Shown here piece after piece: positions 13,587 through 19,968 of a stretch of 32,000 nt of DNA; within the stretch, counting starts at the first letter, position 1, and each line of letters begins with the position of its first letter. The translations under genes and the position numbers were made by a program. The notes beneath the pieces are model-generated. The model ran no database searches, was not told where the DNA came from, and saw only the letters and a list, made by a program, of their open reading frames with translations. The DNA is from Candidatus Bathyarchaeota archaeon (GTDB lineage Archaea; Thermoproteota; Bathyarchaeia; Bathyarchaeales; Bathycorpusculaceae), in NCBI GenBank assembly GCA_963815095.1, contig CAWFFH010000003.1:1109962-1141961 (forward strand). Direction: 5' to 3'.

Positions 13587-14132
13587 ATGCGGCTTCCAGA
13601 AATATCTAAAACTGTTCAAGTTCCAAATGACGTAACCCTGAGTCTAGAAAGCAAAAAAATCAGTGTCAAAGGTGCTAAAGGTACATTAATACGCGATTTC
13701 TCGTTTGCTCCAATTTCAATAGAAGGCGAAGGCAAAAACGTCCGCATTTCAGCCAAGTGGCCGCGCAAAAAGGAAGCTGCTCTGGTAGGCACTATCTATT
13801 CGCACATAAATAACATGATAACAGGCGTAACAAAAGGCTACCAATACAAACTCAAAATAGTATTCTCGCACTTTCCCATTTCAGTAAAGCTTCAGGACAA
13901 ATCCGTCTTGATTGAAAACTTTACGGGAGAACGTAGACCTCGCAGGATAAAATTAGTCGGTAGCGTTAAAGTGAAAATTGAACCTGACGACATCATTGTT
14001 GAAGGCGCAAACTTGGAAGAAGTCAGCCAAACCGCCGCCAACATTGAACAGGCAACACGGGTTAGAAATAAAGACCCAAGAGTTTTCCTCGACGGCATAT
14101 ACGTATATGAAAGAAACGAAGGAATGGCATAA
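13587..14132 (+). CDS. rpl6: 50S ribosomal protein uL6
   Basis: 181 aa: VKGAKGTL...GVTKGYQYKLKIVFSHFPISV...DPRVFLDGIYV. AAGGAGTG lies upstream. Confidence 0.94.
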   Translation: MRLPEISKTVQVPNDVTLSLESKKISVKGAKGTLIRDFSFAPISIEGEGKNVRISAKWPRKKEAALVGTIYSHINNMITGVTKGYQYKLKIVFSHFPISVKLQDKSVLIENFTGERRPRRIKLVGSVKVKIEPDDIIVEGANLEEVSQTAANIEQATRVRNKDPRVFLDGIYVYERNEGMA

Positions 14133-14695
14133 TGACTGAAAAGAAACCTTCCCCATCACGCGAAGCACTCAAACTTAGAGCGCGCGCAAGGAACAAGAAA
14201 CCCAAATTCGTAAGAGCTGAAAGCTGGAAATACGACCGCTTCAGCATAAGCTGGAGAAAACCACGCGGCTTAGACAACAAAATACGCCGAAAAATCAAAG
14301 GGTGGCCACCAGGACCCAGTATGGGTTACAAGGGACCAAAAATCGCCCGATTCCTCCATCCATCCGGATACCGCGAAGTCATAATTTTCAATGTAGAAGG
14401 CTTATCCACTATAGATCCTAACACTCAAGCTGCACGCATCTCCCACACAGTCGGCAAACGAAAACGCGCTGGAATCATAGCAGAAGCTAAGAATCTTAAT
14501 ATTAAAATTTTGAACCTCAAAGTTTCTAAGGAAACTGAAGAAGAGACAACCGAGGAAGTCGCTGAGGGTGAAGCACCAGAGGCAGAAGCTGCAGAGAAAG
14601 AAGCCTCAAAAGAAGAGAAGAAGCCAAAGAAAGAAACCAAAAAGAAAGCACCCAAAACTAAACCTAAAGCCAAGAAGGGAGAAAAGAAACAATGA
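14132..14695 (+). CDS. rpl32e: 50S ribosomal protein eL32 with Glu/Lys-rich C-terminal tail
   Basis: KPKFVRAESWKYDRFSISWRKPRGLDNKIRRK is the L32e core. The tail from about 14522 is ETEEETTEEVAEGEAPEAEAAEKEASKEEKKPKKETKKKAPK... Confidence 0.92.
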   Translation: MTEKKPSPSREALKLRARARNKKPKFVRAESWKYDRFSISWRKPRGLDNKIRRKIKGWPPGPSMGYKGPKIARFLHPSGYREVIIFNVEGLSTIDPNTQAARISHTVGKRKRAGIIAEAKNLNIKILNLKVSKETEEETTEEVAEGEAPEAEAAEKEASKEEKKPKKETKKKAPKTKPKAKKGEKKQ

Positions 14696-15147
14696 CTGAC
14701 TTAAGCGGACAAAGACGTTTAGCTGCTCAAATCCTCAAGATTGGGCAAAACCGTGTTTGGATTAATCCTGAACGTATGGCTGATGTTGAAGGCGCAATTA
14801 CACGTGAAGAGGTTAGAAAGCTGATTCACGAGAAAATAATCGTTACATTGCCCCAACAAGGAGTAAGCAGATCCCGCGCAAAGGTTATTCGAGCCAAAAA
14901 ACTCAAGGGCAGACGTAGTGGTCCAGGAAGCCTAAAAGGCGCTAGCCACTCAAAGGTTACCAAGAAAGAAGCTTGGATGATAAAAATTCGTTCTCTACGG
15001 CGCAAGCTTAGAGATTTGAAAGCAAGAAAAGTCATAACTGACGAAACCTACACCCAATATTACAGGATGGCAGGCAGCGGCAGATTTGAGTCTATTGCTG
15101 ATTTAGAACGCAATTTGAAAGCGCATGATTTATGGAGGAAACGTTAG
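14692..15147 (+). CDS. rpl19e: 50S ribosomal protein eL19
   Basis: LSGQRRLAAQILKIGQNRVWINPE...GRRSGPGSLKGA is typical L19e. It overlaps the L32e stop by 4 nt. Confidence 0.94.
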   Translation: MTDLSGQRRLAAQILKIGQNRVWINPERMADVEGAITREEVRKLIHEKIIVTLPQQGVSRSRAKVIRAKKLKGRRSGPGSLKGASHSKVTKKEAWMIKIRSLRRKLRDLKARKVITDETYTQYYRMAGSGRFESIADLERNLKAHDLWRKR

Positions 15148-16044
15148 ATGGCAAAAAAAGCAAATTACCGAGTACAACTGCGACGTAGGCGTGAAGGAAA
15201 AACCGATTACCAAGCCCGCAAGGCACTGGTTACATCCAGAAAGCCAAGGCTTGTCACAAGGGCGTCACTCAAAAATGTTGAAGTACAAATAATAATCGCT
15301 AAGCCCCATGGTGATGAGGTTTTAGCATCAGCTAACAGCCGCGAACTCATTAAGTCTTATGGATGGAGAGCTCCCACAGGCAACATCCCCGCTGCTTACC
15401 TAACGGGTTTGCTTTGCGGTGTGAAAGCTAAAGCTGCAGGCATAAAAGAGGCAATTTTGGACATAGGCTTGGTTTCGCCAACGAAAGGCTCAAAAATCTT
15501 CGCTGTCTTAAGCGGCGTGGTTGACGCTGGAGTGCAAGTTCCTCACGGTGAAGATAAAATCGTCAAAGAACGTATGAAAGGAGAACACATAGCCAAATAT
15601 GCAAAAACCTTGGGCATCGGATCCGAAGATTACACAGCCAAATTCTCACAGTACAACGCGCAAGGTGTGGCTCCAGAAAAAATCGCTGAACACTTCACTA
15701 AAGTTAAAGCTGACATTTTGTCTGGCTCAAAGAGTGCTAAAATAGCCGTAGTAGCTGTTGCACCAAAAGCGGCCTCAAAAGAGAAAGCTACAAAAGCAGC
15801 GGTTAAAACAGCAGCACCAGCCCAAAAAGAAAAAGCACCAATTAAGGCTAAAGAAGAAAAACCAGCAGAAGTAGAACCTGTGAAAGCGAAAGCTGCACCA
15901 AAAGCGAAAGTAGCCAAAGAGAAAACGCCAAAGGAAAAAGTTACAAAAGAAAAAGCTGCCCCAAAAGAAAAAGAGGCAAAAGCACCAAAAGAAGCTGCAA
16001 CCAAAAAAAAGGCTACAGCTAAGAAAGGTGGAAAGAAAGCATGA
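15148..16044 (+). CDS. rpl18: 50S ribosomal protein uL18 with ~100-aa Lys/Ala-rich C-terminal extension
   Basis: YRVQLRRRREGKTDYQARKALV is the L18 N-terminus. The recognisable core ends near aa 190. The rest (from about 15724) is APKAASKEKATKAAVKTAAPAQKEKAPIKAKEEKPAE... Confidence 0.92.
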   Translation: MAKKANYRVQLRRRREGKTDYQARKALVTSRKPRLVTRASLKNVEVQIIIAKPHGDEVLASANSRELIKSYGWRAPTGNIPAAYLTGLLCGVKAKAAGIKEAILDIGLVSPTKGSKIFAVLSGVVDAGVQVPHGEDKIVKERMKGEHIAKYAKTLGIGSEDYTAKFSQYNAQGVAPEKIAEHFTKVKADILSGSKSAKIAVVAVAPKAASKEKATKAAVKTAAPAQKEKAPIKAKEEKPAEVEPVKAKAAPKAKVAKEKTPKEKVTKEKAAPKEKEAKAPKEAATKKKATAKKGGKKA

Positions 16045-16697
16045 GTAGTAGAAACCGAAATGAAAGAGAAAAGCGTACGACTAACTTAGAAGCTTGGATA
16101 CCAAAAACCCGGCTTGGTAAGATGATTCAGGAAGGCAAAATTACCAGCATCGAAGACGTCTTCTTATCGGGCATAAAAATCTCCGAATCTCAAATCGTCG
16201 ACTCGTTGATTCCTGACTTGCAGGAAGAAGTCATAAACGTTAACTTGGTTCAGAAGCAAACTGACGCAGGCGAAAAATCACGCTTCAAAGCCATCGTCGC
16301 AGTCGGCAACCGAGACGGCTACATTGGATTAGGCAGCGGAAAAGCTAGCCAAGTAAGAAACGCTATCGAAAAAGCCGCAGTAAATGCCCGCTTAAACATT
16401 ATCCCCGTTAAACGAGGATGCGGAAGTTGGGAATGTGGCTGCGGTAAACCACACTCAGTGCCATTCGAAGTAGAAGGTAAATGTGGCGGTGTCCGTGTAA
16501 TTATCGTTCCAGGGCCAAGAGGTTTAGGTTTAGTTTCAAGCGAAGTAGCAAAAGTTATATTAGGTTTAGCTGGTGTGAAAGACCTTTGGATGCGAAGTTT
16601 CGGTTCCACAAGAACGGTGCCCTCTTACGCATGCGCAATCTTTGACGGATTAAGGAAGACTTATAATTTGATTACCACAGTGGACTGGGTGAAGTAA
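16041..16697 (+). CDS. rps5: 30S ribosomal protein uS5
   Basis: WIPKTRLGKMIQEGKI...FKAIVAVGNRDGYIGLGSGKASQVRNAIEKA...VPGPRGLGL is typical S5. Confidence 0.94.
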   Translation: MSSRNRNEREKRTTNLEAWIPKTRLGKMIQEGKITSIEDVFLSGIKISESQIVDSLIPDLQEEVINVNLVQKQTDAGEKSRFKAIVAVGNRDGYIGLGSGKASQVRNAIEKAAVNARLNIIPVKRGCGSWECGCGKPHSVPFEVEGKCGGVRVIIVPGPRGLGLVSSEVAKVILGLAGVKDLWMRSFGSTRTVPSYACAIFDGLRKTYNLITTVDWVK

Positions 16698-16698
16698 A

Positions 16699-17187
16699 AT
16701 GGCGCAGAAAATAGAAGAATGCAAACCTCTCGTCGTAGTACGAATCCGTGGACTCGTTAGTGCTCAGCGCGAAGCCAGAGAAACCCTTGACCTACTCAAT
16801 CTAAACCACACCAATCACGCTATCATAATCGACAGCCGACCATCCTACAAAGGTATGCTTCAACGCGTAAACAGCTACGTCACCTACGGGGAACCCACAA
16901 CAGAAACCGTAACTATGATGCTACAAAAACGCGCGCTCCTTGCAGGCGACAAAAAACTAACTGAAGAATACCTTACAAAAATAGGCTACAAATCTTTCGC
17001 GGACCTCGCAGAAGCCATAGTTGCCTGCAAAGTGCAATACGGCAAACTTCCAGACATACAAGCACGTTTCCGACTGCATCCACCAAGCAAAGGCTACAAG
17101 GGCAAAACCAAAAAAGGCTTCAAAGCAGGTGGCGAAGCTGGCTACCGCGGAGAAGCAATCAACGCATTAGTCCAACGCATGGTCTAA
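16699..17187 (+). CDS. rpl30: 50S ribosomal protein uL30
   Basis: LVVVRIRGLVSAQREARETLDLLNLNHTNHAIII is typical archaeal L30. Conserved position after S5. Confidence 0.92.
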   Translation: MAQKIEECKPLVVVRIRGLVSAQREARETLDLLNLNHTNHAIIIDSRPSYKGMLQRVNSYVTYGEPTTETVTMMLQKRALLAGDKKLTEEYLTKIGYKSFADLAEAIVACKVQYGKLPDIQARFRLHPPSKGYKGKTKKGFKAGGEAGYRGEAINALVQRMV

Positions 17188-17207
17188 ACAACAAATACGC
17201 TCAATTA

Positions 17208-17222
17208 TTTTTTGTTTTGTTT
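17208..17222 (+). terminator. oligo-T archaeal-type terminator after rpl30
   Basis: TTTTTTGTTTTGTTT begins 21 nt after the L30 stop. Archaeal termination typically uses T-runs like this. Confidence 0.5.
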
Positions 17223-17645
17223 AATTCTTAATTGGTTTAAAAGTTATTTTGTTAAATTATTTCTAAAGCAGATTGTAATATAGTTCGTTATCATAATTGT
17301 TTTATCCAATAATGATTATTTAACTTTCGAGATCTTTTCTTGTTTATGCTCTAATATTTTTATAAATTTGTTAAGTTTTTGTGAAGTATTTTGTTTAGCA
17401 ATGTAATTTTTCAAATCCATGTAGTATATTTAGTTCATATAGTCTCTATCCAGAAGTTAACGAAGTGGATCATTTTGTTTATTTTTCCAGACATTAATAA
17501 ATTGAAAACCATAAATCACTGAATTGCCCATTATTTTTCACAAAATCAGCCTGCTTCCGCCGGCGTATCACCGTGCAATCGCTGTTTTCATTGATATTTT
17601 GCTTATTGTCGGTTAGGGGATTTGTCACCGTTTATGTGCGATACG

Positions 17646-17653
17646 TTTTATAA
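17646..17653 (+). promoter_or_regulatory. candidate TATA box for the hsp20-rpl15-secY unit
   Basis: TTTTATAA lies ~45 nt upstream of the hsp20 ATG. GGAGG at 17682-17686 sits between them as a Shine-Dalgarno. Confidence 0.4.
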
Positions 17654-17696
17654 CATCCTTAGAGAGATGCGTTAGTCAATTGGAGGGGCAAGATAC

Positions 17697-18140
17697 ATGA
17701 GTGCAAGATGGAGAAGAAGCAGTAAGAAACGCAAGTGGCTTGATTTTAACGAGTTTAAGGACAAGAAACCTGTAGTAACCCAGAAAACTCGACGGTTAAA
17801 AAACATGCCTGCACATACAAGTTTTCGCCCATCCAAAAGCTTTATCAAACGCAACTTAGCTGAACAAAAACCTTTAATTGACATCTTCCAAGAAAACAAC
17901 ACAATTACTATAGTTGCTGAAATAGTAGGCTTTAATAAGGAATCTCTCAAGATAAATGTGAAAGATCAGAAAATTACGCTGTCGGCAAAGTCAAAAGACC
18001 GAAGATACTATAAAAGTTTAAATCTTCCGACGGTAGTGATTCCAAACGCAATGCACACCAAATTTAAGAATGGCGTGCTCGAAATCAAGCTTAAAAAAGC
18101 TGAAACAATCGATAAAGAAGCGGATCAAAATGCCACATAA
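17697..18140 (+). CDS. hsp20: small heat-shock protein (Hsp20/alpha-crystallin domain) with strongly basic N-terminal region
   Basis: The C-terminal ~85 aa look like an alpha-crystallin domain (IDIFQENNTITIVAEIVGFNKESLKINVKDQKITLSAK...FKNGVLEIKLKK). The N-terminal ~55 aa are Arg/Lys-rich (RWRRSSKKRKW...). GGAGG lies ~10 nt upstream of the ATG. Confidence 0.8.
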   Translation: MSARWRRSSKKRKWLDFNEFKDKKPVVTQKTRRLKNMPAHTSFRPSKSFIKRNLAEQKPLIDIFQENNTITIVAEIVGFNKESLKINVKDQKITLSAKSKDRRYYKSLNLPTVVIPNAMHTKFKNGVLEIKLKKAETIDKEADQNAT

Positions 18141-18540
18141 ACTAAGAAAAATCAGAAAAACAAGAGGCTCAAGAACACAAGGTTACGGAAGAATAGGTCA
18201 ACACCGAGACAGCGGCAGTAAAGGCGCCCGAAAAGTTGGACGCCACAAACACCTGTGGAGTCTAGTTGTTACTTCTGAACCCAACTACTTCGGAAAACAC
18301 GGATTTACGTCACCACAAAGCCTACACACTAAAACAAACACAATTAACCTAATCAAACTTGACCAATTAGCTCAAGGCTCCGAAATCGACCTAACCGATC
18401 TTGGCTACACCAAACTCTTAGGCACAGGAAAAATCAGCAAACCCCTGACTATAAAAGTAGCGTCATTCTCAAAATCTGCACAAGAAAAAGTCACCCAAGC
18501 CGGCGGAAAAATCGTAGCTCCCCAAACCCACGGAGAGTAA
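18130..18540 (+). CDS. rpl15: 50S ribosomal protein uL15
   Basis: MPHKLRKIRKTRGSRTQGYGRIGQHRDSGSKG is the canonical L15 N-terminus. I prefer the ATG at 18130 over the tracked 18070. This start overlaps the hsp20 3' end by 11 nt. Confidence 0.9.
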   Translation: MPHKLRKIRKTRGSRTQGYGRIGQHRDSGSKGARKVGRHKHLWSLVVTSEPNYFGKHGFTSPQSLHTKTNTINLIKLDQLAQGSEIDLTDLGYTKLLGTGKISKPLTIKVASFSKSAQEKVTQAGGKIVAPQTHGE

Positions 18541-18549
18541 AACTGCTAA

Positions 18550-19968
18550 ATGCCCGGAAGATTTCTCAGCCTCTTCAAACCAATAGGCAGAGTTTTACCT
18601 GAAATAAAAAAGCCTGAACGCAAAGTAAGCTTTAATGAAAAAATCTTCTGGACTGCACTCGTTCTTATTATTTTCCTTGTCATGACTGAAATCCCGCTTT
18701 TTGGGATTGAAAAAGCAGCCTCTGATAGTTTTGGTCAATTAAGAGTTATTTTTGCTTCCAACCGCGGCACCTTGATGGAGCTGGGTATCGGTCCAATTGT
18801 TACTGCTGGATTAATTCTCCAATTGCTCGCAGGATCCTCAATTATTAAATGTGACATGTCAAACTCTGAGGATAGAGGACTTTTCACTTCAGCAAGCAAA
18901 GTCTTTAGCATTGTATTAACCGGCATCCAAGCTGGCGCATACATTTTAAGCGGCATGTATGGTACGACCCTAGCTGGACCCACAATTATAGTAATTTTCC
19001 TGCAACTCCTTTTCGCAGGCATAATCGTAATGTTAATGGATGAACTCGTCCAAAAAGGATGGGGATTAGGCAGCGGAATCAGCCTATTCATCATGGCAGG
19101 CGTTGCCCAAAACGTCTTATGGTCAACCTTCTCGCCGCCCACAGGATTATTCGTTGGTTCTCTCTCAGCCTATTTAGGCGGTTCACAAACTTTAGTTCAA
19201 TGGTCCTTTGGCAGTGCTTCAGGGGTTTACCCGTCCCTGCTAGGCTTCTTTGCCACTATTGCCGTTTTCTTGATTGTCATTTATTTGCAAGGCGTAAGAA
19301 TTGAGCTTCCAATGAGCTACGCTGGGTACAAAGGCTTCCGAAGCAGATACCCAATTAAACTCCTTTATGTCTCAAACCTGCCAGTTATCTTTGCATCAGC
19401 CCTATTCGCAAACGTTTACTTCTTCAGTCAACTACTTTGGAGTCAATTTGGACGACCTGCGCCAGGAACGAATTTGTTCTTCCAATTTATAGGTGATTAC
19501 AGCTATAACGCAACATCAGGAGCTGTTACAAACGTAGGGGGCTTAGCATATTATGTTACTGCACCACGAAACATTCAAACCGTAATAGCTGCGCCAGTGC
19601 AAGCTTTCGCATACTTAGGTGTCATAATAATTTTCTGTGCCGTCTTCTCATTGATTTGGCTTGAAGTCGGCGGTTTAGGACCTTCAAAAGTCGCACAGCA
19701 ACTCATGGACAGCGGCATGCAAATTCCAGGTTACCGTCGCTCAGGACGACCCATCGAAGCCATCCTCAAACGTTACATACCTGTAGTTACAGTTTTAGGA
19801 GGTATTATCGTTGGGCTTGTGGCTGGGGTCTCCGACTTCTTTGGTGCCTTCGGTTCAGGTACGGGTATCTTGCTGTCAGTAGGCATCATCTACCAGTACT
19901 ACGAACTGCTGATGCGTGAACGCGCCGCAGAGATGTTCCCAGCGTTCAGAAGAATCCTGGGCGAATAG
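18550..19968 (+). CDS. secY: preprotein translocase subunit SecY
   Basis: 472 aa polytopic membrane protein. SecY motifs are present (GTLMELGIGPIVTAGLILQLL, GWGLGSGISLFI). Conserved position after L15. Confidence 0.95.
   Translation: MPGRFLSLFKPIGRVLPEIKKPERKVSFNEKIFWTALVLIIFLVMTEIPLFGIEKAASDSFGQLRVIFASNRGTLMELGIGPIVTAGLILQLLAGSSIIKCDMSNSEDRGLFTSASKVFSIVLTGIQAGAYILSGMYGTTLAGPTIIVIFLQLLFAGIIVMLMDELVQKGWGLGSGISLFIMAGVAQNVLWSTFSPPTGLFVGSLSAYLGGSQTLVQWSFGSASGVYPSLLGFFATIAVFLIVIYLQGVRIELPMSYAGYKGFRSRYPIKLLYVSNLPVIFASALFANVYFFSQLLWSQFGRPAPGTNLFFQFIGDYSYNATSGAVTNVGGLAYYVTAPRNIQTVIAAPVQAFAYLGVIIIFCAVFSLIWLEVGGLGPSKVAQQLMDSGMQIPGYRRSGRPIEAILKRYIPVVTVLGGIIVGLVAGVSDFFGAFGSGTGILLSVGIIYQYYELLMRERAAEMFPAFRRILGE

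Follow-up and report, generated by a model that had tools for sequence, protein, structure and literature searches.

A small heat shock protein (sHSP) gene, hsp20, was inserted once ahead of L15 in the ribosomal-protein cluster of Bathyarchaeia and was subsequently remodelled. In the family of the organism studied here, this gene encodes a strongly basic sHSP lacking a C-terminal IxI motif, and part of its coding sequence is frozen at the nucleotide level and probably serves as an internal promoter of the downstream L15 and SecY genes.

Organization of the locus

The window, i.e., the whole stretch of 32,000 nucleotides analysed, belongs to a Candidatus Bathyarchaeota genome (assembly GCA_963815095.1, contig CAWFFH010000003.1, positions 1,109,962 to 1,141,961). 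An earlier note on this DNA had described an sHSP gene between L30 and L15-SecY whose 3' end overlaps the L15 start. Open reading frame (ORF) calls and Pfam searches confirmed the gene in this position, and the overlap indeed amounts to 11 nt, with the hsp20 stop codon (TAA) at 18138-18140 and the L15 ATG at 18130. The features of the region are listed below.

16041-16697: S5 gene
16699-17187, + strand: L30 gene, the last of the upstream ribosomal-protein block (Pfam Ribosomal_L30)
17188-17637, + strand: AT-rich spacer with T-runs (T-run scan; GC 29.5%)
17638-17653, + strand: P1, predicted hsp20 promoter (conservation)
17682-17688, + strand: hsp20 Shine-Dalgarno (SD) motif GGAGGGG, 8 nt before the start codon
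17697-18140, + strand: hsp20 gene of "type B", 147 aa (ORF, Pfam, AF2)
17697-17870, + strand: codons 1-58, disordered basic N-terminal arm (AF2, charge)
17871-18101, + strand: codons 59-135, alpha-crystallin domain (ACD; AF2, Foldseek)
18010-18025, + strand: P2, candidate L15-SecY promoter (profile score, synonymous freezing)
18120-18126, + strand: SD-like motif of L15, GCGGATC (conservation, 16S complementarity)
18130-18540, + strand: L15 gene (Pfam Ribosomal_L27A and orthologue alignment)
18550-19968, + strand: SecY gene (Pfam SecY and Plug domain)

The flanking genes and their order are those of the archaeal spc-type arrangement (S5-L30-L15-SecY), from which the locus differs by the insertion of hsp20 with P1 between L30 and L15, and by a candidate L15 promoter and SD motif lying inside hsp20. 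At related loci, L30 orthologues are located upstream of hsp20, and SecY follows L15 in all cases. A longer L15 ORF starting at 18070 was dismissed because the orthologues begin at MPHKLRK, an N-terminus that is invariant in an alignment of 70 sequences. On the minus strand, a 92-aa ORF (17672-17950) overlaps the 5' half of hsp20; it mirrors the purine-rich composition of the coding strand and shows no sign of being a gene. Further upstream, the eL32 and uL18 ORFs (14132-16044) have long C-terminal tails rich in Lys, Ala, Glu, and Pro.

Distribution of the hsp20-L15 arrangement

The order hsp20-L15-SecY was found in all 20 loci of the window's genus and in more than 60 further Bathyarchaeia loci, at identities down to about 40%. 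Its distribution was surveyed in 401 genomes of the class, 103 of them from the window's family, with a junction pattern composed of the KNGVLE codons followed by 35-65 nt and the ATGCC of L15; this pattern replaced a family search with the N-terminal arm only, a weak query that matched 22 of 121 genomes. The junction was detected in 96 of the 103 family genomes, including 39 of 40 from the genus. Outside this family, it was present in three of seven genomes of one family and in one of 25 of another, and the remaining families among the 401 genomes gave no match. A longer Hsp20 precedes L15 in three other families of the same order, and in at least seven other families of that order L30 abuts L15, the two genes being about 0-60 nt apart. 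None of the Hsp20 homologues of Desulfurococcales, Heimdall/Hodarchaeota, Nitrososphaerota, and Methanomethylicia adjoins L15. The L30-hsp20-L15 synteny, which the earlier note had left to be checked in related genomes, is thus conserved and not unique to this assembly; with its occurrence in many independent MAGs, the presence of hsp20 between L30 and L15 is not an assembly artefact. Public databases hold more than 900 protein clusters in this sHSP subfamily, annotated only as "Hsp20/alpha crystallin family" or "IbpA", and a literature search found no paper on Hsp20 in the ribosomal-protein clusters of Bathyarchaeia.

Hsp20 retains an alpha-crystallin domain

Profile searches, structure prediction, and structural comparison agree in identifying the product as an Hsp20 with an alpha-crystallin domain, as had been proposed from the sequence. 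The Pfam HSP20 profile (PF00011) matches residues 62-140 of the 147-aa ORF with 34.7 bits (cut-off 20.8). The AF2 model displays a seven-strand beta-sandwich (residues 60-134, pLDDT >90) preceded by 58 residues predicted to be disordered, and its top Foldseek matches are sHSP ACDs throughout, the best in the PDB being the ACD of S. solfataricus Hsp20.1 (4RZK; 45% identity, TM 0.87, rmsd 1.5). The CS/p23 domain (PF04969) also matches this ORF; this identity was ruled out by its weaker score (23.8 bits) and by the Foldseek ranking, in which Sgt1 CS domains appear far below the sHSPs. With the NCBIfam profile for archaeal Hsp20 (NF041800), the protein scored 93.4 bits, short of the curated cut-off of 140, and covered only the ACD part (profile positions 70-152 of 162).

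Compared with Sulfolobus-type Hsp20s (NF041800; 4RZK; S. acidocaldarius Hsp20), the protein shares an ACD without a long beta6 loop and a short RRRR near the N-terminus. Yet, it has no acidic helical N-region, no YGFS..GPDGKP hairpin, and no IxI, its pI is 10.3 rather than about 5, and its gene lies in a ribosomal-protein cluster. The short tail reads ...AETIDKEADQNAT and has no C-terminal I/V-x-I/V (IxI) motif, by which sHSP dimers are joined into large oligomers, and the 58 N-terminal residues carry a net charge of +15 with 33% K/R. In sHSPs, which act as ATP-independent holdases, the N-terminal region is typically hydrophobic and aromatic. Here, the N-terminus had been singled out as unusually basic, and this holds for the extended arm but not for the short RRRR motif, which is common among archaeal Hsp20s; only the extended basic arm and a basic ACD are particular to the L15-linked clade. 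The first 16 or so residues of type B proteins (S-A-K/R-W-R-R-x-x-K-x-x-K-W-L-D) are strongly conserved. Median dN/dS values were 0.15 for hsp20, 0.12 for L30, 0.13 for L15, and 0.10 for SecY, and hsp20 is under purifying selection comparable to that of its neighbours. Location in the ribosomal-protein cluster, basic charge, and a conservation rate like that of ribosomal proteins, three traits expected of a ribosomal protein or a stoichiometric ribosome-bound factor, are all found in hsp20.

Single origin and remodelling of the L15-linked copies

In a maximum-likelihood tree, all L15-linked Hsp20s fall into one clade (support 97/98) that excludes the unlinked archaeal Hsp20s, among them the 198-aa paralogue encoded by the same genome. 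Type B is monophyletic within this clade (support 100/98) with long branches, and the linked copies form a nested series leading from type A through a shortened intermediate, A', to type B. Type A copies are full-length (175-181 aa), with a retained IxI tail and a pI of about 5-9.6; the basal linked copies are full-length members of NF041800 (181 bits, as compared with 167 bits for the 198-aa paralogue). Along the series, the pI rises from about 5 to 9.5 and then above 10. The IxI motif, present in all type A sequences and in the paralogues, was lost only in type B, which also lacks the acidic helical N-region and the YGFS...GPDGKP hairpin. In type B, the N-terminal arm has a net charge of +10 to +21 (median +15; 31-33% K/R), the ACD a median charge of +6, and the whole protein a pI of 9.9-10.9. 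The unlinked paralogues remain acidic and retain IxI, with charges of -3 for the arm and -5 for the ACD in the 198-aa protein.

The window's genome also encodes two conventional sHSPs, one a member of NF041800 and the other Hsp14-like, and their retention therefore left the linked copy free to specialise. The gene of the 198-aa paralogue (acidic, with IxI) lies upstream of the linked hsp20, at a distance of about 20 kb, and about 2 kb left of the window (G000:C3:1107862-1108125; locus L023, 1495-2091, minus strand), and in most genomes of the genus this gene occurs on the same contig, about 17-38 kb from the L15-linked copy.

These observations bear on the simplest view of the protein, namely that it is an ordinary cytosolic sHSP holdase whose position is a frozen accident, retained solely owing to the L15-SecY signals inside the gene, and whose basic charge has no specific target. 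Its intact ACD, 45% identical to that of a characterised chaperone, would fit such a role, as would the public annotation, and entrenchment alone accounts for the synteny. However, the charge shift is directional, is seen in the arm as well as in the folded domain, and occurs only in the L15-linked clade, and IxI was lost while two conventional sHSP paralogues persist in the same genome. We consider this view somewhat unlikely, albeit a serious alternative.

The L30-hsp20 spacer and promoter P1

The L30 gene ends 509 bp ahead of hsp20, in a region with a GC content of 29.5%. The oligo-T that the earlier note had seen after L30 was found as one T6 (17208-17213) followed by five T5 runs (at 17357, 17376, 17407, 17482, and 17534); the T-run scan thus counted six runs in the spacer, as compared with only two in the ~8.7 kb of the upstream cluster and none in 17697-18540. 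The spacer T-runs are candidates for archaeal termination signals at which the upstream ribosomal-protein transcript may end. Spacer length ranges from 222 to more than 2400 nt within the genus, with L30 lying more than 1.5 kb from hsp20 in some members, and is reduced to 71-102 nt in distant type B lineages. These wide differences indicate that extra DNA was inserted at the break point. Rfam searches of the spacer and the gene gave only a sub-threshold chance match, and no tRNA was found there.

The predicted hsp20 promoter, P1, consists of a GCGATAC box (17638-17644), a G, and the TATA box TTTTATAA (17646-17653), and lies 44 nt upstream of the start codon. Within the genus, it is essentially invariant and present at each of the 20 loci; it is conserved as well in distant type B loci, in A' loci, and in some type A linked loci, and it also occurs where L30 ends just 71-102 nt ahead of hsp20. 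It is absent from loci where L30 abuts L15 and occurs only once in its own genome at up to one mismatch, which argues that P1 came with the inserted gene. Its conservation thus supports, at the sequence level, the earlier proposal that hsp20 has a promoter of its own behind the T-runs of L30.

With a promoter profile learned from the 40 tRNA genes of the same genome (consensus RGnAAnG-TTTAAAT), P1 scored only 4.5 bits because its upstream box is atypical; speculatively, a specially regulated promoter would fit this low score. A corresponding regulon was sought and discarded, the motif GCGATAC-N-TTTTATA being unique and relaxed patterns yielding no heat-shock or ribosomal genes. Upstream of P1 (17560-17637), two blocks are conserved within the genus only, AATCGC-GTTTTCAT-G..T.TTGCT and TTCAGGTGTTTT.T.ACC.TTTATGTG, which are possible regulator sites. 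An RNA thermometer or other structured leader upstream of hsp20 was ruled out, since the consensus fold of 19 leaders contained 0 pairs and the single-sequence fold gave a z-score of +1.0.

A candidate promoter of L15-SecY inside hsp20

P2 has the sequence ATAAAAGTTTAAATCT, lies within codons Y105-L110, and comprises a BRE-like ATAAAAG and the TATA box TTTAAAT (18017-18023). On the tRNA-promoter profile, it reaches 11.2 bits, equal to the median tRNA promoter, and is the top site of the + strand in 16600-18600 and within the top 4.3e-5 of genome positions; the profile was used in place of the exact P2 word, whose 10 genome-wide matches are too few to judge. The best profile match 113-134 nt upstream of the L15 ATG is this element in about 67 of the 71 distinct type B loci. 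The 12-mer AAAAGTTTAAAT (18012-18023), read as AAA-AGT-TTA-AAT and encoding K106-N109, shows frozen synonymous sites in about 70 species: a single codon is used in 99, 87, 97, and 99% of the 71 sequences at K106, S107, L108, and N109, respectively, as compared with top-codon frequencies of 35-50% for Leu, 42% for Ser, 55-79% for Lys, and 59% for Asn in comparison conserved columns. Type A and A' copies encode other residues at this position, and their best promoter-like words occur in the longer hsp20-L15 spacer (type A) or in the hsp20 3' end (A'). P2 is thus probably an internal promoter of L15-SecY, and the simplest reading of the series is that it moved into the coding sequence upon collapse of the spacer. 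With the embedded P2, the amino acid motif YKSLN would be fixed as well.

Alternatively, the frozen 12-mer might be constrained at the nucleotide level for another reason, for example as a processing site of the mRNA, as a site bound by RNA or protein, or as a promoter of the antisense strand. A TATA box has near symmetry, and the antisense strand of P2 still scores 6.8 bits. However, the sense score is as high as that of the median tRNA promoter, the BRE-like AAAAG is found on the upstream side, and the distance to L15 is constant, so we regard such a constraint as unlikely. Since the hsp20 coding sequence is AT-rich and Lys-rich, TATA-like words arise easily within it. A second such word, in the EIKLKKA-coding stretch (18084-18099) about 40-50 nt before L15, scores 7.8 bits and up to 11.5 bits at locus L019; it is not frozen at synonymous sites and is therefore a chance match or a species-specific extra promoter.

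In the earlier note, L15 and SecY were thought to be transcribed from the sHSP promoter, and a separate internal L15 promoter was named as evidence against this view. Computationally, P2 is a candidate for just such a promoter, by both its score and its freezing across some 70 species, and the claim as originally worded was not borne out.

Start codons of hsp20 and the SD-like motif of L15

L15 has a putative translation signal of its own. This SD-like motif, conserved across type B loci at 4-6 nt from the ATG, lies within the final codons of hsp20 and reads GCTGATC or GCTGGTT in relatives. The 16S 3' end is GGATCACCTCCT, and its GAUC part is complementary to the motif. Loci with L15 directly behind L30 use GGTGAT-type motifs. 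The conserved end of the Hsp20 tail (...K-E/V-A-D/G) is partly explained by the L15 ribosome-binding motif located there. Across type B loci, the hsp20 stop falls between -16 and +30 nt relative to the L15 start, and several genus members have it 1-23 nt before L15, without overlap.

By comparison, initiation of hsp20 combines a strong SD with an often weak start codon. The GGAGGGG(G) motif is conserved in the genus 6-11 nt upstream of the start position, and throughout type B this position sits 6-11 nt after a strong GGAGGGGG. Among the 71 distinct type B sequences, the codon found there is ATG in 26, TTG in 22, GTG in 9, ACG in 11, CTG in 2, and ATA in 1. The 14 cases of ACG, CTG, or ATA all belong to the genus-level group of the window (14 of 34), and in 11 of them the interval from the upstream stop to the conserved N-terminus contains no in-frame ATG, GTG, or TTG. 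The non-standard codons, which align with 17697-17699, occur in loci L007-L009, L011, L014, L017, L019, L020, L049, L051, L053, and L055-L057. In ACG species, the Arg at codon 6 of the arm is encoded by either AGA or CGT, and the Leu at codon 15 by five different codons (CTN/TTA); these synonymous swaps indicate that the arm is translated even in such species. ACG, CTG, and ATA are flagged here at a start position that is conserved and preceded by an SD. Automated gene calling probably misplaces the start of these genes, which would probably account for the 142-144-aa database variants covering 97% of the query. A literature search found no paper on ACG starts in archaea.

The L15 start, in contrast, is always ATG. 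From these codons, translation of Hsp20 seems tuned to a lower or conditional level, and a fixed 1:1 ratio of the two products is therefore unlikely, which argues against the earlier idea that the amount of the sHSP is tied to that of L15/SecY. Translational coupling of L15, also suggested there as possible, would fit the position of the hsp20 stop near the L15 start, but L15 has its own SD-like motif and the overlap is not conserved.

The model from which these proposals came, a single operon read from the hsp20 promoter only, with L15 translationally coupled and Hsp20 acting as a ribosome or translocon holdase matched to L15/SecY, can be weighed on this basis. It is consistent with the conserved P1, the stretch from P1 to SecY without T-runs, the proximity of the hsp20 stop to the L15 start in type B, and the basic arm. 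Nevertheless, a conserved promoter-like P2 within hsp20, the SD-like motif of L15, the weak or near-cognate hsp20 starts set against an invariant L15 ATG, and the genus members without overlap all speak against it, and we find the model very unlikely.

Proposed entrenchment of hsp20 and a possible remodelled holdase

We lean towards a model, as a whole slightly favoured by the evidence, in which an ancestor shared by part of the Bathyarchaeia would have acquired hsp20, together with P1, by a single insertion between L30 and L15. In the window's family, the hsp20-L15 spacer would then have collapsed, with the consequence that P2 and the L15 ribosome-binding motif now lie inside hsp20. Transcription of L15-SecY would probably start for the most part at P2, although some transcripts may read through from P1. 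Under these circumstances, loss or relocation of hsp20 would harm L15-SecY expression, and the near-universal synteny would be explained without any functional link between the chaperone and its neighbours.

As for the protein, it keeps an intact ACD but was otherwise remodelled, and its synthesis would begin behind a strong SD, though often at a weak start codon. The directional rise in positive charge, in the arm as well as in the ACD, the missing IxI, and the retention of ordinary paralogues together suggest polyanion binding rather than a classical large-oligomer holdase. The lack of IxI and the short tail are shared with human HSPB6 and the C. elegans Hsp12 class, sHSPs that form small oligomers; unlike type B, these sHSPs come from metazoans, are not strongly basic, and have an unrelated genomic context. 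Type B Hsp20 may be a low-abundance, small-oligomer holdase that is kept in place by a polyanion, with RNA or ribosomes as the most likely candidates. A functional analogy for a ribosome-bound state is provided by E. coli Hsp15 (HslR), a basic RNA-binding heat-shock protein on 50S subunits, whose S4-like fold is unrelated to that of the window's Hsp20. The complex prediction for L15 and Hsp20, both given as alignments, scored 0.00, which is no verdict for or against an interaction, and the ESM Atlas look-alikes of the arm all scored at most 0.81 and were uninformative.

Basic charge alone does not name the ligand. RNA or ribosomes are the most economical guess, from the genomic location and the precedent of E. 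coli IbpA, an sHSP whose cationic ACD cluster binds its own 5' UTR (PMC10474464) and which controls sigma-32 translation (PMC10410725). By analogy, type B Hsp20 could be an mRNA-binding regulator of the translation of its own or the L15-SecY mRNA that senses aggregation; in type B, an invariant cationic stretch, KSKDRRYYK, lies between beta5 and beta7, and the surface is basic. Yet, the IbpA target is a structured 5' UTR, whereas no conserved structure was seen in the hsp20 leader, and P2 places a DNA-level constraint on part of this cationic stretch. IbpA also differs in that it retains IxI, forms oligomers, and is not in a ribosomal cluster. Regulation of this kind thus appears scarcely probable.

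Membranes are an alternative ligand, given that S. acidocaldarius Hsp20 binds and stabilises them (review PMC9133787). The Trp/Arg-rich arm (KWRR..KNRKW), in which W5, R6, R7, and W14 are nearly invariant, might hold a membrane- or translocon-proximal holdase on anionic lipids beside SecY, in keeping with the gene linkage to secY. However, the arm is predicted to be disordered and has neither a hydrophobic nor an amphipathic helix, the secY linkage is indirect, via L15, and the ACD has a basic surface as well, a feature more typical of proteins that bind nucleic acids. This placement likewise has little to recommend it, and a holdase held on RNA or ribosomes is preferred.

Implications

The Hsp20 described here appears to be a known superfamily member in a new derived form and with a new genomic role, and its embedded promoter, its start-codon pattern, and its basic, IxI-less architecture are each unusual, the functional claims being drawn from sequence. 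A bolder reading, which we deem distinctly unlikely as a whole, would make type B Hsp20 a ribosome- or rRNA-bound factor that was recruited from an sHSP and is specific to the Bathyarchaeia, initiated at near-cognate codons in many species, and with a coding sequence doubling as the L15-SecY promoter. If this were true, a chaperone domain would be permanently stationed on the translation machinery, and the ACG, CTG, and ATA codons would represent the first documented case of natural near-cognate initiation in an archaeal gene. The locus would offer a natural example of gene entrenchment in the most conserved gene cluster of archaea, with a chaperone gene fixed because the promoter and the ribosome-binding site of essential downstream genes moved into its coding sequence. 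It also brings to light a large, unstudied subfamily of sHSPs that occurs in nearly all genomes of one Bathyarchaeia family. As its members lack IxI and have a basic surface, the idea of an sHSP directed to RNA or ribosomes becomes testable.
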